From assembly GCA_002431905.1 (NCBI GenBank), contig DJER01000007.1, forward strand, positions 15,019 to 79,018: a stretch of DNA of 64,000 nucleotides, given 5' to 3'. Numbering within the stretch: the stretch's first letter is position 1; each line of letters starts with the position of its first letter. Under the pieces are notes generated by a model that searched no databases, was not told where the DNA came from, and saw only the letters and a program-made list of their open reading frames with translations. Both the position numbers and the translations under genes were made by a program. Source of the stretch: Christensenella sp. UBA5893. Its GTDB lineage: Bacteria > Bacillota > Clostridia > Christensenellales > UBA1242. This document shows positions 12,484-25,456 of this stretch, piece after piece.

Positions 12484-15400
12484 TTATCTTATCTTCATTT
12501 TCTTTCTTAAGAGAACAAATGTAAGTGTTAAACCAACAACAACAACGCAAGCAACAACAATTACAATTATTGACACCGCATTAAGTGGTTCATTTTTTAC
12601 AACTCTGTATGAGTATAAAAGTTTTCCACTTTCGCTATACAATTGAATAAAGTATGTACCTTTTTCGGTTAATTCAATTTCGTATGTGCTCTTTATCTTG
12701 TTGTCGGCAAGTGCAGAACTGTTAAGGTGAAGGTCTTTTTGTCCTGTTATTTTTAATACGCAGTCGCCAACATCTTCAATAAGGTTTGCAGTGTTGAATA
12801 ATACTTTTATTGTGTCAGTTGTTTCTTCGTTTTCTCCAATTGAAACTTGAATTGAAGGGGTTTTGTTATTTAACCAGAAACTGAATGTAAATTCTTGATT
12901 GAACTCATTCCCTGTTGCAATTGTAACAGTGTATTGACCTTTTCCTGTGAGAGCGTCAACAACCGAGAAGTTAAAGTTCTTTAGGTATGGTTTGTTATTT
13001 TTGTAAATAACTGTACCCATATTTTCATTTGTCAACTTTTCTGTTACATCAACTTCATTTTGTAAAATTTGTTTTACATAGTAGTTTTCATATTCGCTAA
13101 AGTCAAAGGCATATCTTGATTCATTCTTGTTAATTATTAAGAAGTATATTGGTTGTTCGTTAATCTCCATTGTTTTTCCTGAATCTGTAACACCGGCAGA
13201 AAACCAAATCTTATATAAGCCTGGGTCAGAGAATGTGAATGTTTTTTGGTATATGTCTTTTTCTGGTGAATATTCTTCGCCATTCTTTAATGCGTGCAAT
13301 CTTGGTTGAGCACTTTGGTCATAATATCTTGTTGTGTATGAAGGAATCTTTACAACAACATTATCATTATAAACTGCATTATTTATTGGAGATTGGTCAT
13401 TTATTGTGAATATAACTGTTTTTAGGTAGTTGATTGTGTAGAATGCTTTTGTTTCAAACAAATGTACATTTCCAGCCATATCTTTAAATACCAATTGGTA
13501 AATACCAGAGTTTGATAGAACCAAACTTGTTATATCGTTTTCAGTGGTAAGGGTAGGGGTATAAGGCGTTTGACTGTCGCCATATGTTATTTCAACATTA
13601 ACCAAGTTTTCGGCAATTCCATAATATGATTGCCAAGAAATTCTCTTTCCTGAAATGTTGTTTTCTTCTTTTGTTACAACAAATCTCTTTTCTGTTCCTG
13701 TAAGTTGAGCCGGAGTTCCTTCGTTTTCATAATATGAGAAGTTTCTTAAAATATCATTTGTTTGTGGAATAATGCTTACTGCAATCTTTCTTTCAAGTTT
13801 GCTTGATTCATTATTTGACTTTATTGTGTGAATATATGTTTCGATGTTATTTGTTACATACAAAACAGGTTCGCCATCTTCAACATAACCTTGTTCTGTG
13901 TTGTAAATTATGTCGTAATCTTTTGTGTTGATGATATAGTGGTTTGTTATCTCATAAGTTGTATTTCCGTCTTGATATGAATATTTGTTGCCTGTTTTTT
14001 GAGCGTAGTAGTTTATTCCATCAATTGTATAAACAACTTTGTAATATTCAAAATCATTGTTAGAAATTGTGAACTCAAAATATTCATCATACATTTGATT
14101 TGTAAATATGTTTGTATATTTTACAACAAGTTTGTATGTATTTGGTTCATTAACAATTTTGCCAGATGAAATTGCTTCCAAACTGTCATCGCTATGAAGC
14201 AAATAAACATCACATAAAATTTTTGCATTTGTTTGCTTAAATGTAATCTTTATTGCATTGCCGTACATTGAACCTTTGTTAAACAACTCATTTAAATTTT
14301 GATTTGATGTTCCAAGAAGTGTAAACTCTGGGACTTTGTTATAGATAATAAGGTTTAATGTGTCATAACTTCTGCCTTGAGAAATTTCCTCAACTGCAAT
14401 AAATTTCTTTATTGTGAATCTAATTTCAGAACCAAACACGCTGTTGGCAAGGTCTTTTGCAGGAGCTTTTAGAATAATTGTGTAAACATTTGAATTTGAA
14501 CCTTTTTGAGGTAAGATGATTTGACCATAACCTGAATTGTTAAATTCGGTAATCTTTCCATCAACTGACAAGTCGAATGACCTTGTGTCATATGATGAAC
14601 CAACATTAAGAATAATTCTGTCTTTTGCACTATTATATTTGAATATAATATCTTTTGTTGAGTAGTAGTATTTTACGCCATCTTCATATTTTTCAACCAA
14701 ATCAACTGAACTATTTAATTCTTTGTCAACTTTTTCGTTTCCATAGATGTTTGTAAATTCGGTTGTGTCGCCAAAGTTATCAAGTATTATGTATTTATAG
14801 AATATATTTGCCTTTGGTTCGGTTGCAACAATTTTCATATAAGTGTTGCCAAGATAATTTACATAAGTTGTTGTAATTCCCGCAGGACTAACAAGAGTTT
14901 GTCCGGCACTTGCAAAGTATATTTCATCTCTCTTTTCATACAATGCATTTTGTCTATAAGTGTTATCCTCTTTAACATACTCAAGTATTCTAACTTCAAT
15001 TGCATATATTGTTGCATCTTGAACTGATGATGTGCTTGGTATTTTGATCAAAATTCCTTCTTGTGATGCATATGTGCTTGTTTCAGAAGTGTGGAACACA
15101 GTTAGGGAAGTGTTAAGTACAGATACTGTCAATGTGATTGTGTCATAAAGTGGAACAAGTCCCAATGTTATGCTTTGTTTTTGATTGCTTGCAGAAAGTG
15201 TTGATAATTTTTTAAGAGTTATTTCACTTGTTGAAATATCAATTGGATTATATTTCGCAAGGTCATAATAAACATTGTTTGAGTAAGGAGTTTTTAGGAA
15301 TGTTTGATTTCCAATCTTGATAATACTCCAAGCAAAGTTTGCAATGTTTACTGAATCTAGTGCAAAAGCACTTTTTGCATTGATTGTAATGTTTGAACTT

Positions 15401-18400: not shown

Positions 18401-19941
18401 GCGTTGAATATAGATTTTGATTGTTCATCCTTTTTGATTAAGACATCTTTGTTTGTAAATGAACCGTCGTTTAAAGTTTGTTTGTTTTCTTCTTCGTTTG
18501 TTTCAATTGAAATTTTTGTTGTTGATTTTGTAATTTCAAAAACAAACCATTGGCTTCTTAATTTTTCGGTTGAATCATTTGAAATATTTGAAGGTGTACA
18601 AACTTCATCAGCACCAATAATTGTTGGGGTATACTTGTAGACAACATTAACAAGATATATTCCTGCCTTTGTTAATGGGGAATTGTCATATTCAACTCTT
18701 GAATTGTTGGCAATTGAATAAGTGTTTGTGTCTTTGTCAAGATCAAGCATATAGTAAGCACTTTGTGTGTCAACTATGTCAGAATTATCATTGTTGAATA
18801 TTTCAACATTATACTTAAATTGAACAGGTGATTGATTTGTTTCTTGAATTGTAATTTCGTTGTTGTTTAATTTTGTAAGAATGTTTTGAATGTTATCGTC
18901 TTGTGTGTCGTTTAAAGTTGCATTAAATTTTGAAAATAGGTAAGAGATATCTGTTACTTCTTCTTGAATTGCACCATTGTTATCAATATTTTTAAACTCT
19001 TTTAAAAGGCTTGTTTCAATGTCTGAATAATAAAGTTGATATCCAAATATTTCCAAAAGGTCAATATGTTTTGTATTTGCATTTTGAGATGATTTTTCAA
19101 TAGTTTCAACTGTGCTGCCATATGTGTAAATAAAATTGTAAGAGATTGTGTATGTCCCCAAATCATTAAATGTTACATAAAGGAAATCATTTTCTGGACT
19201 TGTGTAAAAATAAACTATATTATTGTCTGTTTGAATATTTGTTCCATCAAACCAAATTCTTTGAGTTGTTGCATTCTTTTGGAAAGTTTTGGTTATTGTC
19301 AAATTTATATTTTTGTAATTAACTGCAAGTTTTGGCAAAACTTTTGAGTCATAGTTAAATTGAAAAATATTGTCATATGGCATAACAAGTGATTTGTCAA
19401 CTTTGTGACAGTTGTCGTAAATGGCATTGACAGTTGTTCCACTATAGTAATCACTATTTTTTAAAGCATAGAATGAATAGGTTATTGTTTTGTTTGATGA
19501 CTCGCCATTTTCACTTACAATATAATTGATTCTTATTTCGTATTTCCCATAAGGTGCAGTTTTGTCGGCATCGTTAAAGGTTAGTGATAAAGTAAGTTTT
19601 TTCATCCCGTCATGTGAGTAGTCAATTGAGTACTTGCTTGTGATATCCGAGTTTATACTTTGACCATTATAAGTTATGTACGGATTGATAAAATCAATTT
19701 CTTTTGTTGAAGATGATGACATCACTGCTTTAATTGTGTCACTTGGTGTTATGTACGCAACTGCTCCGTCTTGAATAATTGTTCCCGGATCGGTTGATGA
19801 TGTGTACTGTTTTACTGTGAATATATCTGAAAAATCTTCAGCATAAGCATTGCCACTAAAATTAAGGCAAAATATACTGCAAAAACATAAAGTTATTGCA
19901 AGAAAAATAAATGTTAAATATTTTTTATTTATTATTTTCAT
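12484..19941 (-). CDS. Giant (2485 aa) membrane-anchored surface protein, putative adhesin
   Basis: Uninterrupted 7.4-kb ORF. Signal peptide ends ...FSGNAYA/EDF. Single C-terminal TM helix (SIIVIVVACVVVVGLTLTFVLL) followed by RKKMKIR. No LPXTG. N/T/Y/S/I-rich, beta-type composition. Confidence 0.85.
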   Translation of the reverse strand: MKIINKKYLTFIFLAITLCFCSIFCLNFSGNAYAEDFSDIFTVKQYTSSTDPGTIIQDGAVAYITPSDTIKAVMSSSSTKEIDFINPYITYNGQSINSDITSKYSIDYSHDGMKKLTLSLTFNDADKTAPYGKYEIRINYIVSENGESSNKTITYSFYALKNSDYYSGTTVNAIYDNCHKVDKSLVMPYDNIFQFNYDSKVLPKLAVNYKNINLTITKTFQKNATTQRIWFDGTNIQTDNNIVYFYTSPENDFLYVTFNDLGTYTISYNFIYTYGSTVETIEKSSQNANTKHIDLLEIFGYQLYYSDIETSLLKEFKNIDNNGAIQEEVTDISYLFSKFNATLNDTQDDNIQNILTKLNNNEITIQETNQSPVQFKYNVEIFNNDNSDIVDTQSAYYMLDLDKDTNTYSIANNSRVEYDNSPLTKAGIYLVNVVYKYTPTIIGADEVCTPSNISNDSTEKLRSQWFVFEITKSTTKISIETNEEENKQTLNDGSFTNKDVLIKKDEQSKSIFNAKTRLVVSTQENFAGNYIDTEITSNDGQVFSSNGNYIVTMYFGKNLNRSYSSTFTIDKEEIDNIQIFSVNIQDNNTTYLRNKQIDFMTNQSVIVSWNNKTSGSVISAQYKYFPISLNSSYSFSDDLCKKYYNKDYSILSNYEINLEDSEYTPVDYSNAQMYTQSIPSSAVLSQNGLYVFKLLDSAGNEKYFAFVVDKTPSIVLQQIDGTFVDPTELNIVSSDVDIMFGQYKVIKLKNLKQSVPFANNDSWLDKILNNTEIYNSHFKLLQINTFDDVYISVKNNAKVLMSEQENTKFIDNNILNKFSIHIPFEDGKDITFYTQDELCNNGYFTEEEYLKTHSNIFRVKLSSDASQTNLIYKTKDQKNTSLYLSSFNHVDNVSSTKNQYYIPTTANTLANSNEILTLEFLPVPESGVLEVESVEYTFTPFSPSKKVDEQNSLNYTYSYVFDNSATVNGIIYSKLDPTKTLAKQNGDKYSWEINLEYNNITGSKQTKSGKYVITRKYAQTSQLNDKLAEKKDYITRTFTFIIDRNGIITNPVVTDSSSQNMYSYVGEAIKIQVLENENDKMFFNDIYLAKIANDKNSPILQTNKLPVFVYIPVYTYGYAYTNGGTFNLEDSIAYYDTNDKLNSLISSYNLSAEIKYSYEQSSLEQSTEIYKGYSDNGDGYLKFSGITSTSGRAFTKVGYYKVTIKQGLPQYGQNEFSYIFSIESGAPDFKVTSLDGTELAKGSSGDYYTNNENVKLEWEDPVNKFRAKINKNEIYYSINGGTQVKVSSNQINTSENVNTVNISLNDIGGYKDGNSIQFFMQFEGDQKDYQEGSFKKTCTLVIDTKAPDKNLNKLVSLSGIDSSLLRTVETKYNTSTVSGLYKYYAFPVDKSQLERVFDFTSYDNGDTYSMYYRVFENNNGENTKYNNIYSQETLPSDFENSKIGFTSINDIENDLLTNDSLINKYIEIVEVDLAGNITIYTIYLTNLKASSSTTAITFTQNNRDEKQNISYDNLSSNITINAKSAFALDSVNIANFAWSIIKIGNQTFLKTPYSNNVYYDLAKYNPIDISTSEITLKKLSTLSASNQKQSITLGLVPLYDTITLTVSVLNTSLTVFHTSETSTYASQEGILIKIPSTSSVQDATIYAIEVRILEYVKEDNTYRQNALYEKRDEIYFASAGQTLVSPAGITTTYVNYLGNTYMKIVATEPKANIFYKYIILDNFGDTTEFTNIYGNEKVDKELNSSVDLVEKYEDGVKYYYSTKDIIFKYNSAKDRIILNVGSSYDTRSFDLSVDGKITEFNNSGYGQIILPQKGSNSNVYTIILKAPAKDLANSVFGSEIRFTIKKFIAVEEISQGRSYDTLNLIIYNKVPEFTLLGTSNQNLNELFNKGSMYGNAIKITFKQTNAKILCDVYLLHSDDSLEAISSGKIVNEPNTYKLVVKYTNIFTNQMYDEYFEFTISNNDFEYYKVVYTIDGINYYAQKTGNKYSYQDGNTTYEITNHYIINTKDYDIIYNTEQGYVEDGEPVLYVTNNIETYIHTIKSNNESSKLERKIAVSIIPQTNDILRNFSYYENEGTPAQLTGTEKRFVVTKEENNISGKRISWQSYYGIAENLVNVEITYGDSQTPYTPTLTTENDITSLVLSNSGIYQLVFKDMAGNVHLFETKAFYTINYLKTVIFTINDQSPINNAVYNDNVVVKIPSYTTRYYDQSAQPRLHALKNGEEYSPEKDIYQKTFTFSDPGLYKIWFSAGVTDSGKTMEINEQPIYFLIINKNESRYAFDFSEYENYYVKQILQNEVDVTEKLTNENMGTVIYKNNKPYLKNFNFSVVDALTGKGQYTVTIATGNEFNQEFTFSFWLNNKTPSIQVSIGENEETTDTIKVLFNTANLIEDVGDCVLKITGQKDLHLNSSALADNKIKSTYEIELTEKGTYFIQLYSESGKLLYSYRVVKNEPLNAVSIIVIVVACVVVVGLTLTFVLLRKKMKIR

Positions 19942-20142
19942 AGAGTCACCCCATTATTCAACAATATATTAACACATTTTGTCTTTTATTTCCAAATATA
20001 TTGTGCATATTTATTAAATAAATATTAAATACATTTAATATAATAAAAAAAATAATACAATGGAAAGGCAAAAATAAAATGAAATAAAAAAATATTCCCA
20101 ATCAAATTATAGGAATACTTTTTAATTAAATTAAATATTTTA

Positions 20143-22119
20143 TTAAAAATCAAAATCATCAAATACATTAGATTTCTTAAACACTTTTGCATTTCTTGCT
20201 TTTATATCATAGAATATTGCCATTTCATCAAGGTGTCTGCTTGGAGCATATTCTTCGCTCGCTTTTCTTTGGTCAAGAACAGGGTTTCTAAAGTATTGTG
20301 TCATTTGTGTTTTTATTGCAGGTTGTCCATAAATTTTTACAATGTTTACGTCAAAAGGTAATTGACCAAGTTCGTATGGTTCAATAAGTGGACGAGTGAC
20401 AATTTGAGTTGAAATTGTTTTGCTAGAATCTCTGTCATTTTTCTCACTTTGGTTTATGGATGTGTTTTGAGTTTTAAGTGTAACTTCACCACAAATCTTT
20501 GAAAATTCTTCTCTTGTCTTTTGGTCTTCTGTTCCAATAAATATTTGGATGTTGCAGTTTCCTTTGATTGTGTCGGCAACTTCTTTTGTATACTTGTTGT
20601 CAAGTTGGCTGTAAGACTGTATGGCAAGTTCAAAGAAAATTCTTCTTGAACGGGCAACCGTAATAATTGTGTCCATTTTTTCAATCTTTGGCAAGTTTGC
20701 AAATTCATCAAGCAAGAAGTATACAGGTCTTTGGAGTTGAAGGTTTGGTCTTGCGCTTGCTGTGTTAATCAAAGTTTTATACATTTGCGAAATGCACATT
20801 GTTGCAATTGAGTGTCTACTTTCTTTTTCGTCAGGGACTTTAATAAATAGGACTGTTGGTTTGTCAGTGAAGTCTGCAAATGAAACATCAGTTGCACTTG
20901 TACAATAACAAATACCCATATCTTGGAACACTGCAATCTTTGGTTGCAAAACACCAAGATAGCTTCGGGTGGTGTTTGGTGCATTGTTTACAACAGTGCT
21001 TGTTAGGGCAGGGACTTTGCTTAAAACATCTCTCCCTGATGTGTATTGTTTTAATGTTTTCATCATATCGTCACCATCGACATCACGATATGTTGCAATT
21101 TTTACAAGGTTATAGAAGTTGAATTTTTCTCTTGTCATCCCAAGTTCTGGATTTAAACTGTCTTCAAGCATTGCAAGCATAAGTCCATACAAGAAATCTT
21201 GTGCACCACGTTCCCAGCCTTGATCGGTCTTGCTCTCGACCGTAACAATTGTGCTGGCAATTTCACGAAGTTCGTTTTCTGCTTCATTAATCAAAAATTG
21301 CTTTTTTGCTTCAAGGTCTTGCATAAGAGCTTCTTTTGTTGGATATGCAATTTTTTCAAAACCATACCATGTGTCGGTGTATTCTTTTGCAATTTCCTTA
21401 TATCCGCCAACATCTTTTGGTTTTGCACCTTTGTATACTTTTACTTCATCCTCAAGGTGATGTGCTCTTTGGTACATCATAAAGGAGTTGTCCATTGGGT
21501 TCCATCTTGTTGAAGAATATGGATTCCTTAGGTCGATAACAATAATTCTATATCCTTCTTCACGAAGTTGAATTGAGTGGTTGTTGTAAAGTTCGCCCTT
21601 TGGGTCGGTGATAACCATACAAGGCTTTTCGGCACTATGAGCATAAACTCTTATTGCTGGGTCAAGAACGAATGTTGTTTTACCTGAACCGGTTGTACCA
21701 ATAATAAGAGTGTGAATAGGGTTGTACATATTAATATGCATAACACCATTTTTGTACAAACTTCTTATCATAACACCAGTCTTTTTTACCTTTGGAAGTT
21801 GCTTCCATGTTGTTGGCATAAACACTGGGTTTGTAAGCAATTCTTCTTCGCTGACAAATCTTGCTTCATAGTGTTGATTCATTTCACTGCCACTTGCAGT
21901 TTTTCCGGTGTATCCACCTTTTTCATCTGTATAGAATCTGTTTGTTGAAACAAGGTAAGCGAGAACTGCCAAAAGTCCACAACCCAAAATAACAAGAGTT
22001 GTTGTGCTTGTTAGCACTTCGGGGAATGTTGGATTATCTTTAATAATAAAAGAAACAACAACTCCAACAATATAGATTATTACAAGTGCAATAAAAGAAT
22101 TTTTAAATTTCTTTTTCAT
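20143..22119 (-). CDS. Type IV secretion coupling protein (VirD4/TraG/TraD family ATPase)
   Basis: Start set at MKKKFKN behind GGAGG. Two N-terminal TM helices. Walker A IIGTTGSGKTT, ITDPKGELY, Walker B YFLLDEFANLPKI, and RSRRIFFELAIQSYSQL. Confidence 0.85.
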   Translation of the reverse strand: MKKKFKNSFIALVIIYIVGVVVSFIIKDNPTFPEVLTSTTTLVILGCGLLAVLAYLVSTNRFYTDEKGGYTGKTASGSEMNQHYEARFVSEEELLTNPVFMPTTWKQLPKVKKTGVMIRSLYKNGVMHINMYNPIHTLIIGTTGSGKTTFVLDPAIRVYAHSAEKPCMVITDPKGELYNNHSIQLREEGYRIIVIDLRNPYSSTRWNPMDNSFMMYQRAHHLEDEVKVYKGAKPKDVGGYKEIAKEYTDTWYGFEKIAYPTKEALMQDLEAKKQFLINEAENELREIASTIVTVESKTDQGWERGAQDFLYGLMLAMLEDSLNPELGMTREKFNFYNLVKIATYRDVDGDDMMKTLKQYTSGRDVLSKVPALTSTVVNNAPNTTRSYLGVLQPKIAVFQDMGICYCTSATDVSFADFTDKPTVLFIKVPDEKESRHSIATMCISQMYKTLINTASARPNLQLQRPVYFLLDEFANLPKIEKMDTIITVARSRRIFFELAIQSYSQLDNKYTKEVADTIKGNCNIQIFIGTEDQKTREEFSKICGEVTLKTQNTSINQSEKNDRDSSKTISTQIVTRPLIEPYELGQLPFDVNIVKIYGQPAIKTQMTQYFRNPVLDQRKASEEYAPSRHLDEMAIFYDIKARNAKVFKKSNVFDDFDF

Positions 22120-22433
22120 TTTTCCTCCAAAATATATTGATATCATTTTATATTAAAAATATTACTATGTCAAACTATTTAACACTTGCAAATATTTTTT
22201 ATACTTGGAATATTTAATTTCTAAAAAAAATATTTCAAAAAATGTTTAGGCATAAATAAAAGATACAATTGTTGAACATAATAGATTTGTTAAAGGTGGG
22301 TGAAAAACTAAATTTGAATATTTTAATTTGATAATGAAAGTGGAAAATATGACAAAAATCGCATAACTAATTATCTGCGAAATAACCAATTTATAAATTT
22401 TATAAAAAAATTGAAAAAAAATTAAAAAATTGT

Positions 22434-22462
22434 TTGGCAAATACAAAAATATATGATACTAT
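22434..22462 (+). promoter_or_regulatory. Putative promoter TTGGCA-17 nt-TACTAT
   Basis: Hexamers with 17-nt spacing, 77 nt upstream of the 22539 start. Confidence 0.4.
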
Positions 22463-22538
22463 TAAATCGTAAAATAAATTGCAAAGCGAATAATTATTTT
22501 ATTTAATGCAAATAAATAATTAAATTTAGGAGGGAATT

Positions 22539-22904
22539 ATGAATTTATTTTTAACAAAGCTTACTACATATATGCTTGGATTTGGGAAGTCTGCAAAATT
22601 GGCAAAAGAATTAGATCCAAAATGGCAATGGGTAAACAACATCACAAGTGCAGTAGATTCTGTTTTGTGGCCATTACTTATTGTTGTTGGTGCTGCAGGC
22701 ACAATTTATGCTGTTGTTCTTGGCGTTAATATGGCAAGAGCAGATTCAACAGAAAAACGTGAAGAAGCAAAGAAAAGACTTATCAATGTTATTATTGGTA
22801 TTGCAATCACAATTGCACTCATCTTATTCTTCAAGTTGCTCACAAGCACAATTATCCCATCACTTCTTCCAGATGTAGCTGGCGATGGCACAGAAGGTGC
22901 TTAA
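22539..22904 (+). CDS. TrbC/VirB2-like pilin-type small membrane protein
   Basis: 121 aa. Two hydrophobic helices (WPLLIVVGAAGTIYAVVLGV and VIIGIAITIALILFF) separated by the polar loop NMARADSTEKREEAKKRL. AGGAGGG RBS. The assignment is by topology and size only. Confidence 0.5.
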   Translation: MNLFLTKLTTYMLGFGKSAKLAKELDPKWQWVNNITSAVDSVLWPLLIVVGAAGTIYAVVLGVNMARADSTEKREEAKKRLINVIIGIAITIALILFFKLLTSTIIPSLLPDVAGDGTEGA

Positions 22905-22935
22905 TAGTTGATAATTTCCAATTAAATAAAAATTT

Positions 22936-22966
22936 AGGCTCGACATATGTCGGGCTTTATTTTTTT
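22936..22966 (+). terminator. Intrinsic terminator after the pilin-like gene
   Basis: AGGCTCGAC/GTCGGGCTT stem (two G-U pairs) followed by a T-run. Confidence 0.65.
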
Positions 22967-23101
22967 GAACCAAATGTTTACATTCTAACTAAATATTTTT
23001 CTTATTAGTAATAAAAAAATAAAGAAAACTATGTACAACTTCAATTTTATTTGTTATAATAAATACAAATAGTAGAAAAATATTATAGGGGAGGCAAAAC
23101 A

Positions 23102-25414
23102 TTGAAATTATTATTGGATACCATAATTAGTGGTGATATATTTAGTTTCATTCCACAATGTTTGTACTATGTATGTGCATCATGTTTGCAAGTAATTGAT
23201 TTTGCTCAATTGCTTTTTAGAAAAATTATTGGACTTGATACATACTCCTACGGTGGAACTGTTGCTGTAAATCCGGTTGATTTTGGCGATGGCTCAAGTG
23301 GTGATCTTGTTTTACAGATTTTGCAAAAGATTTTCTTAAATGAAGATTTCCAAGTCCTTAAAACTGCATTTATAAGTATGATGATTCTTGGGGCGATAAT
23401 TTTGGTTATCACAAGCATCACTGCAATAATAAGAGTTGAATATAATCCAAACAAAAAAGCTGATGGCAAAAAAGATTGGGGTAAAGGTGGAATTATTTGG
23501 AATATGATAAAAGCGATAATTGCTTTCTTTGCTATTCCTGTAATGTGCTACTTTGGTGTGTTTATTGGGAATATCGCTTTGTATGGTTTAGATCAAGCAA
23601 CTGCGCCAAATAATGTTAATATCGAATCTATGGATGAGTCAGTTTTAAAATACATACAACCAAGTGTAACCACTGACGGTACAAAAGTTGTTTCCTATGA
23701 TTATTATATTTTCTGGGGGCAAAAAGCTGCATCAAAATTTACTCCAATGTCGGGTACTGCAATAAGGTTTAGTTTATATTCTGCAAACAAGGCAAGGCTT
23801 GATAGTTCATTCTATAATACTTTGATGCAAGAAGATACAGCCGAGGGTGCAACGATAAACTTTGGTATCTTTAATAAATATGACAATGCAGACAAAGCAG
23901 CAAATGCAATTGACACAATGTTTATGTTAAATGCAAAACTAAAAAATCCACAACAAATAAACACTGAATATCAAGACAGTTCCGCATTCAAGCATAGTGG
24001 AGTGGTTGAATATTTTGATAGATATGATGTTGGTCTAGTTAGTTACTATTATAATTTGTGGTACTTTAACTGGCCTGTTGCAATTGCTTTCATTTTTATT
24101 GCAGGAAAGGTTTTCCTTGGTTTAATTTTTGGTGTAATTGGCAGAGTTTATATGGTCTTTGGGTTATTGCTCACAAGTCCACTTGCTGCATCAATGTGGC
24201 CAACAGATGGCGGCTCAGCAGTAGGTGCTTGTCGTAAAAAATTGATTGCAACCATCGCTGGGGCATATTCCACAATTGTTGCAATAAACCTATTTTATTT
24301 AATATATCCGGTAATAAGTTCGTTCTCATTCTTTGGTAATACAGCAAATAAAATTTTTGGCGTAGCAGATTATTTATTCCAATTATTCTTCTTGATTGCT
24401 GGGTTACTTACAATAAAAAAATTGGATGGCGTTGTTGCAGGTTTTATCTCTGGAGAAAGTATTCTTTCTTCAGGTGAGGGTATTCAAAAAGATGTTTTTG
24501 ATACAGGAAATAAGATTTTGGGTACAGCAACAAAAGCTGCAATGGCAGGGGTTGGAGCAACGAAATTATTAGCATCGCCAATAACAGCAGGTGTTGGTGC
24601 GGCACATAACTACAACAAGATGCGTCGTGCTAGAAATAAATTTGAAAACACAAAAGGTGGCGAAGTTGGACAAAAGGCATCAAAAAGTGATGATGATATA
24701 AATAGTGGTGTTTTGGGTTCGATGAGAAACACAGATGCCTACAAAAATGAATTTAACAAAGAATACGACGAATCAATCCATAATCACTATGAAGATTACA
24801 AGACTTCTGGTGGAACATTAAGCGAACAAGACTGGAAGGATGTTGAAGCAGATGGCTCTGCATTAAAGGCAGAAGAAGAATGGAATAACACCGTTGATAA
24901 AAATACCTTTAAGGATGAAAGTGGACGCTTTAATGTTTCTGCATATAATAAAGCCAAAAGCGACTTTATGAAACAAAAATATGACGAAAGCGGACTAGAT
25001 AGCAAGGGCGATTACAAACATTGGATGGATGTTGCAAACAAACGAAAAGCTGAAATTAAAAATGCAACAGGAAAAGATGATAAAACTTGGAATGGCATTG
25101 TAAATGGAACATATAATTCTGCAATCAAGGAATCACAAATTGCCGCTCAAAAGGAAGTTGACAAAAAGGTTTCACAAATTCTGAAAGAAGGTAAAGGCGA
25201 AGGCGAACTTGCTGAACAATCGCTAAAACAACAAAAGGCTGCTCAAGCAGAAAGAGAACAAGCAAAACAAGAACTTATGGCTGCAGAAGATAAGTTTAGA
25301 AAACAACAAAAACAATATGAAAACAGCCCAACATACGGACAAAGATTAAAACGTAATGCAGGCAATGGCGCTGGCCTTATTGGGAAAGTGTTTACAGCAG
25401 AGCCCAAAAAATAA
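23102..25414 (+). CDS. Polytopic membrane protein with long K/E-rich C-terminal tail (VirB6/TrbL-like position and topology)
   Basis: TTG start behind GGGGAGG. At least 6 hydrophobic helices in residues ~90-450, then ~300 hydrophilic residues with coiled-coil-like segments (AEQSLKQQKAAQAEREQAKQELMAAEDKFRKQQ). Confidence 0.4.
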   Translation: MKLLLDTIISGDIFSFIPQCLYYVCASCLQVIDFAQLLFRKIIGLDTYSYGGTVAVNPVDFGDGSSGDLVLQILQKIFLNEDFQVLKTAFISMMILGAIILVITSITAIIRVEYNPNKKADGKKDWGKGGIIWNMIKAIIAFFAIPVMCYFGVFIGNIALYGLDQATAPNNVNIESMDESVLKYIQPSVTTDGTKVVSYDYYIFWGQKAASKFTPMSGTAIRFSLYSANKARLDSSFYNTLMQEDTAEGATINFGIFNKYDNADKAANAIDTMFMLNAKLKNPQQINTEYQDSSAFKHSGVVEYFDRYDVGLVSYYYNLWYFNWPVAIAFIFIAGKVFLGLIFGVIGRVYMVFGLLLTSPLAASMWPTDGGSAVGACRKKLIATIAGAYSTIVAINLFYLIYPVISSFSFFGNTANKIFGVADYLFQLFFLIAGLLTIKKLDGVVAGFISGESILSSGEGIQKDVFDTGNKILGTATKAAMAGVGATKLLASPITAGVGAAHNYNKMRRARNKFENTKGGEVGQKASKSDDDINSGVLGSMRNTDAYKNEFNKEYDESIHNHYEDYKTSGGTLSEQDWKDVEADGSALKAEEEWNNTVDKNTFKDESGRFNVSAYNKAKSDFMKQKYDESGLDSKGDYKHWMDVANKRKAEIKNATGKDDKTWNGIVNGTYNSAIKESQIAAQKEVDKKVSQILKEGKGEGELAEQSLKQQKAAQAEREQAKQELMAAEDKFRKQQKQYENSPTYGQRLKRNAGNGAGLIGKVFTAEPKK

Positions 25415-25426
25415 TTATAAATAATA

Positions 25427-25456
25427 AAAGCAAAGTTTATTACTTTGCTTTTTTTA
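25427..25456. terminator. Bidirectional terminator
   Basis: AAAGCAAAGT/ACTTTGCTTT 10-bp stem followed by a T-run. Confidence 0.8.

Follow-up and report, generated by a model that had tools for sequence, protein, structure and literature searches.

Chromosomal type IV secretion systems (T4SSs) that serve core functions with no relaxase are known from Rickettsiales and, recently, from Patescibacteria, both of which depend on other cells. The rvh T4SS of Rickettsiales is inherited vertically, lies in scattered chromosomal islets, has no relaxase and shows proliferation and enlargement of its VirB6-like proteins. The chromosomal T4SSs of Patescibacteria derive from mating-pair formation systems of the MPF-FATA class; they mostly come without a relaxase, use pilins of family PF18895 and a VirB6 protein, usually have the type IV coupling protein (T4CP) far from virB4, and were reported to be essential for the epibiotic growth of Candidatus Southlakia epibionticum (PMC12102498, which also mentions the dispersed Rickettsia islands). 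In the integrative and conjugative elements (ICEs) of mycoplasmas (MICE), TraG/VirD4 (coding sequence CDS5), CDS15-16 and TraE/VirB4 (CDS17) are joined by a surface lipoprotein, CDS14, that is required and is used in mating (PMC6030558). The pattern seen in Rickettsiales and Patescibacteria now appears to recur in uncultured low-GC gut Clostridia, where giant surface proteins, all of one family and of constant length, are tightly linked to the system. The stretch analysed here, called the window throughout, comprises 64,000 nucleotides of contig DJER01000007.1 of Christensenella sp. UBA5893 (about 30% GC, standard genetic code) and carries, at 12484-25414, genes for a giant surface protein, a VirD4-type coupling ATPase, a VirB2-like pilin and a VirB6-like membrane protein. 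We consider it likely that a vertically inherited T4SS of Gram-positive type is encoded at two or more chromosomal loci, of which these four genes form one, no relaxase being found near any of the loci.

The giant gene and the VirD4 gene lie on the minus strand, divergent from the pilin and VirB6-like genes on the plus strand (Table 1). An earlier reading made from the letters of the window (hereafter the sequence-only reading) had placed four intact open reading frames (ORFs) here, and an ORF check found them so. The VirD4/TraG identity that it had proposed was confirmed by matches above the cutoffs of both Pfam (T4SS-DNA_transf, PF02534, E=1e-54, plus TraG-D_C and TrwB_AAD_bind) and NCBIfam (conju_CD1115, 282 bits against a cutoff of 250). 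The protein has two N-terminal transmembrane (TM) helices and intact Walker A and B motifs, and every ATPase motif quoted initially is present, GTTGSGKT starting at residue 141, DPKGE at 172, LLDEFANL at 469 and RSRRI at 490 of the 658-residue form. The ORF was first stated as 20143-22146 on the minus strand (667 residues); a start at 22146 was rejected, this form having no exact protein match. Because public assemblies call the 658-residue form and the conserved promoter (22173..22145) overlaps the start of the longer ORF, the true start is almost certainly the ATG at 22119 (MKKKF...).

The 121-residue protein consists of a leader followed by two hydrophobic helices. The profile search placed it above the gathering score of the Pfam family T4SS_pilin (PF18895, 35.8 bits against 26.6), which together with the two-helix topology bore out its description as VirB2-like. 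Its gene has strong expression signals of its own, promoter and terminator, separate from those of its neighbours. The promoter reads TTGGCA-17-TACTAT with an upstream TG, and promoter and leader are almost invariant between species, though the VirB6-like proteins of the same species are only about 35% identical. RNA structure in this leader found no support (-2.3 kcal/mol, no covariation), and so the leader may be a protein-binding or stability element; an Rfam scan of the window returned tRNA only. Two TGCAAA motifs, 28 nt apart, are present in the leader. In relatives, pilin genes occur in arrays of two to three.

The 770-residue protein has about six TM segments, a beta-containing loop of about 170 residues that is predicted to be extracytoplasmic, and a charged helical tail of 300 residues rich in K, E and A. 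An AlphaFold (AF2) model built with 19 homologues (mean predicted local distance difference test score, pLDDT, 73.6) shows a helical membrane bundle, the beta-containing loop and the long helical tail. Residues 265-454 are covered by matches to two NCBIfam families, MMCAP2_0566 (conjugal transfer) and Mbov_0396 (ICE TM protein), of which the protein appears, by sequence, to be a sub-threshold but clear relative. One paralogue in another locus (L093_776, in L093) passes the MMCAP2_0566 cutoff, with 91.9 bits against 90. No match was obtained when the VirB6-like profile was searched against the sequences of the PDB, or the protein against 72,556 plasmids. The family is expanded in relatives, where tandem triplets of 740-950-residue paralogues are common (many of L009, L011 and L030-L089), and in contigs from termite-gut and other gut metagenomes versions of 1400-2600 residues stand on both sides of VirB4 (L166-L172, L177, L178). 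Membership in the family was considered and rejected for the large protein following Metallophos in L007 and for the large neighbours of VirB4 in L013, L093 and L096, with the exception of L093_776.

The giant protein has a signal-like N-terminus, an ectodomain rich in N, S, T and Y that is predicted to be all-beta, one TM helix near its C-terminus (residues 2458-2476) and a short basic tail, in agreement with the initial description of a C-terminally anchored surface protein. Its gene starts 200 bp downstream of the VirD4 gene, with which it is predicted to be co-transcribed, and in relatives it adjoins VirD4 or the pilin gene. No match was found in Pfam, NCBIfam, PHROG or the PDB. The protein defines a restricted family, which among 1.84 billion proteins numbers 274 representatives (50% identity level). 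With few exceptions the full-length members measure 2.4-3.2 thousand residues and are co-linear to the C-terminus, the membrane-proximal C-terminal part being the best conserved. In one assembly of the same strain (ERZ808246, NODE_2161, coverage 2.8; L002, 2200-9653) the giant gene is split into pieces of 2171 and 331 residues. Since all other copies are intact, a frameshift introduced by assembly or sequencing is the probable cause of the split, and the gene is unlikely to be a pseudogene there. Convergent with the giant gene lies one for a BspA-type LRR_5 surface protein (window 11361-12446); LRR_5 also occurs in the mobile element described below (L173, 14337-15179), which may be coincidence.

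Proteins identical to those of the module are present in several independent gut assemblies. Among the species representatives of GTDB (one genome per species), 131 relatives of the VirB6-like protein were found and 79 loci were kept for examination. Every one of these comes from metagenome-assembled genomes (MAGs) of uncultured gut Clostridia, labelled Clostridia, Christensenella, Catabacter, Candidatus Caccovivens and similar. The VirD4/pilin/VirB6-like module is present in 15 of the 79 (rearranged in three), accompanied by the giant gene on all contigs that extend far enough. Most of the remaining loci hold a single VirB6-like gene or three in tandem, often beside the HD-like gene that also neighbours the full module. 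The relatives' labels place the host in an uncultured low-GC lineage of gut Clostridia that probably corresponds to Christensenellales of GTDB, family UBA1242 or its neighbours; named relatives among the loci include Ca. Caccovivens and UBA5489, the former being GTDB UBA11517 of family UBA1242, with a genome of 1.1 Mb and 34% GC (PMC8035907).

Relatives whose VirB6-like proteins are 63%, 39% or about 35% identical to that of the window preserve both the order of the four genes and their neighbours, namely PRC, Band_7, DUF1858, a 198-residue HD-like gene, FeoA, DnaI, DnaB_2 and peptidase M1. Pairwise codon analysis against the two closest relatives (L005 and L014) gave ratios of nonsynonymous to synonymous substitution (dN/dS) of about 0.015 for VirD4 (98% amino-acid identity), 0.01-0.02 for the pilin (99%), 0.06-0.10 for the giant protein (84-93%) and 0.08-0.20 for the VirB6-like protein (66-91%). 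At greater distance VirD4 is still 82-86% identical where DnaI, DnaB_2 and peptidase M1 have fallen to 55-66%. The relatives rank alike by the identity of the module genes and by that of the flanking genes, which is what vertical descent would produce. In the window, the module has the GC content of the remainder (0.29-0.35), as the sequence-only reading had noted, and is surrounded by no att-like repeats, only by AT-rich chance matches. The module is thus inherited vertically in the chromosome and is not decaying. Of the two explanations offered at the outset, a remnant of an ICE or a domesticated apparatus, the second is supported by the conserved synteny with the flanks, the purifying selection and the divergence that tracks the flanking genes, and the same observations contradict the first; the comparison of synteny and selection across related genomes, which had been suggested as a check, came out in favour of domestication.

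The sequence-only reading had also described the module as an orphan, with VirB4, relaxase and integrase missing from its vicinity and housekeeping genes on its flanks. Annotation of the neighbours and, for VirB4, tblastn bear out the local part of this description. None of the three is encoded in the module or its flanks in the window, no VirB4 lies within -12 kb or +39 kb of the module, the VirB4 proteins of relatives gave no tblastn match in the whole 64 kb, and no GTDB species-representative locus carrying the module has a VirB4 within 10 kb of it. In a distant relative (L013), by contrast with this local absence, one cluster beside FBA, peptidase M29 and GAPDH has the order giant-VirD4 <> pilin-776 aa-VirB6-like-VirB4 (889 aa)-998 aa-82 aa, where <> marks divergent transcription. 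This order, together with the family matches, reproduces the triad of pilin, TM protein and VirB4 of mycoplasma ICEs (Mbov_0395-0397).

A metagenome scan for VirB4 returned 80 loci. The family, 41-91% identical within the chromosomal clade, is abundant in gut and other metagenomes. Fourteen of the 80 loci are contiguous clusters of the form VirD4 <> pilin(s)-...-VirB6-like-VirB4, in many VirB4 directly adjoins a VirB6-like gene, whose product reaches about 2600 residues at most, and in about two dozen VirB4 stands by itself among housekeeping genes. The arrangement giant-VirD4 <> pilin(1-3)-X-VirB6-like-VirB4 is contiguous in L013, L099, L100, L106, L108, L111, L113, L128, L148 and L171-L178. 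The large accessory proteins of the contiguous clusters, X and a second one termed Y, match no family, were not found in the window and evolve too fast to trace. One gene downstream of VirB4, beyond Y, a protein of about 82 residues is conserved in 13 loci (L013, 18431-18679, and 12 others). It matches no family, and no homologue turned up in the window; it could be a further component of the system.

Module and VirB4 are found on the same contig, far apart, in a closer relative. On CALWDY010000014.1 (191,102 bp) VirB4 (P0173, locus L179) lies at about 18-21 kb, between rplQ and FBA, and the four-gene module of the same MAG (L021) is found about 150 kb away, at 168-190 kb; its flanks are those of the window, and its VirD4 shares 82% identity with that of the window. 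A matching gene exists for the strain of the window itself. In assembly ERZ808240, the contig corresponding to the window (NODE_584) has a coverage of 12.97, and contig NODE-264 (L120), which carries a VirB4, one of 12.37. The tetranucleotide composition of L120 correlates with that of the window at r=0.983, the highest value of all VirB4 loci and the level of the window's congeners. The exact L120 VirB4 occurs in at least two assemblies where the exact VirD4 of the window also occurs (ERZ808240 and ERZ26858363), and it shares 88% identity with the VirB4 of L179, a value consistent with the 82% shared by the respective VirD4 proteins. It is encoded alone between pta-ackA-rpmF and groES-groEL plus the S10 ribosomal operon, has an intact Walker A motif, and begins with a two-helix membrane hairpin resembling a VirB3-like anchor. 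Thus, "without VirB4" holds for the locus and most probably not for the genome. Another candidate for the window's VirB4, chosen by source flags (P0104, L096), was rejected: it comes from a distant organism of 38.6% GC whose CysS is only 31% identical. Amino-acid composition among the matches to the L013 VirB4 was not discriminating for the window's own VirB4.

The 45 unassigned ORFs of the contiguous clusters and VirB4 loci were scanned against Pfam. They yielded only housekeeping families, with no relaxase or integrase, except in L173 (positions 3-20895 of a 137-kb contig from the SAMEA104315431 coassembly). This is a genuine ICE carrying the same T4SS family, in the order MobL relaxase, VirD4, a surface protein of 1464 residues, pilin, VirB6-like protein, VirB4, ArdC-like protein, LRR_5, N6/N4 methylase and tyrosine integrase. 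Detection of its MobL serves as a positive control for the relaxase screen, and the existence of such a mobile cousin supports an ICE origin followed by domestication. More distant mobile relatives are seen in the VirB4 proteins of Spiroplasma and Mycoplasma elements (24-30% identical) and in the VirD4 of a B. thuringiensis plasmid (29%).

In its gene content, the system resembles the T4SSs of mycoplasma and Spiroplasma ICEs and plasmids, with which it shares the triad of pilin-like protein, polytopic TM protein and VirB4, in the same order in L013, and whose families are the best curated match for all three proteins. As in MICE, VirD4 and a surface protein accompany the triad. Unlike those of MICE, the genes are distributed between two or more loci in a housekeeping setting and give no sign of mobility, the DDE (Mutator-like) transposase CDS22 and terminal inverted repeats being absent from the module and its flanks; moreover, the VirD4 is of the clostridial CD1115 family, and the surface partner, of 2.5 thousand residues, is anchored by a TM helix and is not a lipoprotein. 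By architecture, the closest analogue is the chromosomal T4SS of Patescibacteria. Features in common are the chromosomal location, the lack of a relaxase at the loci, the PF18895 pilin or pilins, the VirB6-like protein and a T4CP unlinked from virB4, and the hosts here, like Patescibacteria, probably have small genomes. The Patescibacteria, however, are a different phylum, no TrsD or PrgI components were identified here, and the Patescibacteria dataset was without detected PrgB-type adhesins (PMC12102498), whereas a giant surface protein is tightly linked in the system described here. With rvh this system shares the scattered loci and the proliferation of VirB6-like proteins, with tandem triplets and proteins of up to about 2600 residues; rvh differs in being a diderm, P-type system with VirB7/9/10 and VirB11, with no sequence relationship beyond the universal ATPases. 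Finally, the type IV-C or CTn2-type systems (Streptococcus suis 89K, C. difficile CD1110/CD1115) have the same minimal monoderm set of VirB4, VirB6 and VirD4, and it is their CD1115 family whose cutoff the VirD4 passes. Those systems differ in being part of ICEs or pathogenicity islands that also encode relaxases and a VirB1-like hydrolase, and the VirB4 found here reaches only 171 bits against CD1110 (cutoff 325).

Literature searches found no description of such a T4SS in these Clostridia. A 2025 survey presented UBA1242 as a group of reduced genomes (<1 Mb), probably partner-dependent, and proposed that they rely on other cells by way of "hypothetical membrane-bound proteins" and connections between cells, without naming a machinery or mentioning T4SSs (PMC12306168).

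The following model can be proposed. The locus of the window would supply the VirD4 substrate-receptor ATPase, the giant surface protein, the pilin-like subunit and the VirB6-like channel subunit, with the VirB4 assembly and translocation ATPase encoded separately. The giant protein would contact the target cell or surface, by analogy with PrgB-type adhesins or with the CDS14 lipoprotein of MICE (PMC6030558). The VirB2-like and VirB6-like proteins, together with VirB4 and its VirB3-like anchor, would build a membrane translocon into which VirD4 would feed a macromolecular substrate. The ancestor was presumably a conjugation system of ICE type, and the chromosomal version would now carry out a core, strongly constrained function of the cell. 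The most likely function is contact-dependent exchange with other cells. A non-conjugative, co-opted role is favoured because no relaxase is linked, because the genes are fixed in the core genome and because the ATPases are more constrained than replication proteins.

Several observations weigh against this model. All scores of the triad proteins fall just under the cutoffs of the NCBIfam families concerned: the pilin reaches 37.6 bits for Mbov_0395 (cutoff 40), the 770-residue protein 54.5 bits for Mbov_0396 (E=1e-14; cutoff 70) and 77.6 bits for MMCAP2_0566 (E=1e-21; cutoff 90), and the VirB4 proteins of L013 and L120 579 and 567 bits for Mbov_0397 (cutoff 590). Hence the triad proteins are relatives, and not members, of Mbov_0395, Mbov_0396 and Mbov_0397. 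The AF2 model of the 770-residue protein has no significant Foldseek match, the only hits with a probability above 0.5 being the TrwI/VirB6 chains of R388 (probability 0.77, TM-score 0.43, E=0.43). The original assignment of this protein to VirB6/TrbL stands as far as the family relationship and the roughly six TM segments go, and falls short at the cutoffs and in the structural comparison. No fold was obtained for the giant protein, a single-sequence AF2 prediction of its C-terminal 486 residues being unusable (pLDDT 38), and it is from topology and gene neighbourhood that a role in adhesion or contact is suggested. What ties L120 to the genome of the window is a common sample, similar coverage and composition, and co-occurrence of the proteins, as opposed to a physical link. 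Domain scans of the window and of the 45 unassigned ORFs revealed neither a VirB1-like hydrolase nor a VirB8-like protein (PrgL/TcpC), and the absence of a relaxase applies to the surroundings of the loci, not to whole genomes.

This last point bears on the main rival explanation, namely that the system carries out conjugation-type DNA transfer, either of chromosomal DNA as in mycoplasma or as DNA release in the manner of Neisseria, with a relaxase that would be of an unrecognised type or have its gene at another place in the genome. In its favour, relaxase-DNA complexes are the classical substrates of VirD4-type coupling proteins, the best curated matches are to families of conjugal transfer, the mobile cousin does have a MobL, and MICE mate using a surface lipoprotein and this very module (PMC6030558). 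Yet the window and the chromosomal clusters examined contain no relaxase, and the chromosomal version, passed on vertically, keeps to set positions among housekeeping genes, which makes DNA transfer rather improbable in our estimation. We find it harder still to credit a DNA-uptake device of competence type, comparable to the ComB T4SS of H. pylori or the archaeal Ced system. Organisms with small genomes often scavenge DNA, the ATPases give weak NCBIfam matches to CedB and CedD, and ComEC lies near VirB4 in one relative. But this adjacency is limited to the one locus, and except for the L120 VirB4 against CedD (E=2e-7) no Ced match is better than 1e-3, a negligible level. The ComB system is not known to use a VirD4; here, that protein is the most conserved of the components. 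A minimal apparatus functioning without any VirB4, the orphan of the initial description, would account for the lack of this gene in the window and within 10 kb of the module in the species-representative loci; it is contradicted by the VirB4 on the module's contig in one relative, by the contiguous clusters of more distant ones and by the solitary VirB4 contig matching the window's strain, and we regard it as highly improbable. That the genes are a decaying fragment of an integrated conjugative element, as ICE-like ancestry and the split giant gene of L002 (2.8x) might suggest, can practically be discarded given four intact ORFs in all examined assemblies and species-representative genomes apart from L002, dN/dS values of 0.01-0.2 against the closest relatives, conserved flanks, host-like composition and the lack of att repeats.

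Under the preferred reading, a split T4SS with a co-opted function, a more specific role can be put forward tentatively. The machinery and its 2.5-thousand-residue partner may serve to connect cells in gut Firmicutes with reduced genomes (Christensenellales UBA1242-like) that would live in dependence on a partner, as epibionts or parasites, an idea that we consider possible, if short of probable. If true, it would make this system an independently evolved Firmicutes counterpart of the epibiosis T4SS of Patescibacteria. Dependence on a partner has been predicted for some of the named relatives, whose genomes measure about 1 Mb or less, and the split T4SS is a concrete candidate, open to testing, for the machinery behind the interactions of these organisms with other cells. 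For annotation, the case teaches that a T4SS module should not be called an orphan just because no VirB4 is found within 10-40 kb of it.

The positions of the module's genes and signals are collected in Table 1. The obvious terminators mentioned in the sequence-only reading were recovered, a strong one behind the pilin gene and bidirectional ones at both edges.

Table 1. Genes and expression signals of the four-gene module (positions in the window)
Feature	Position	Strand	Basis
Giant surface protein, 2485 aa	12484..19941	minus	ORF and hydropathy
VirD4-type coupling protein (T4CP), 658 aa	20143..22119	minus	Pfam and NCBIfam above cutoff, motifs
VirD4 promoter, sigma-70-type, TTGACA-17-TAAAAT	22145..22173	minus	kept in all nine species aligned
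Pilin promoter and leader of about 70 nt	22434..22538	plus	near-invariant between species
VirB2/TrbC-type T4SS pilin-like protein, 121 aa	22539..22904	plus	PF18895 above gathering score
Intrinsic terminator after pilin gene	22936..22957	plus	9-bp stem, 5 GC pairs, T-run
Promoter-like site ahead of VirB6-like gene	23032-23060		
VirB6-like polytopic membrane protein, 770 aa	23102..25414	plus	sub-cutoff NCBIfam matches
Bidirectional terminator, module edge on giant-gene side	12447..12478		
Hairpin/bidirectional terminator, module edge on VirB6-like side	25426..25452		

The neighbours of the module are rubrerythrin, TrxR, LRR_5, PRC, Band_7, FeoA, DnaI, DnaB_2, CysS, YchF, Tex, Pth and Mfd. The recombinases nearest to the module are an IS30-like one (45.4 kb) and one of the serine type (56.8 kb), both in unrelated elements, and a scan against PHROGs gave no meaningful matches. 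The IS30-like transposase (45371-46234; HTH_38 and an rve core below the gathering score) stands directly to the left of an integrated element resembling a filamentous phage (46526-58309). The latter includes a REP_ORF2-G2P replication protein (47653-48714), a weakly Zot-like P-loop protein (49278-50096) and a 770-residue coiled-coil protein with Listeria-Bacteroides (Flg_new) repeats (50099-52411). The 3' end of the large serine recombinase gene (56771-58309, minus strand) overlaps a tRNA-Asn gene (56760-56834, plus strand). Further along, at 59199-63919, a ResIII-helicase protein of 1120 residues is followed by an Eco57I-type methylase of 452 residues, a restriction-modification or defence pair. 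At the other end of the window (3942-5153) lie three tandem genes for membrane proteins of 114-123 residues, two of which are detectably paralogous (33-35% identity).

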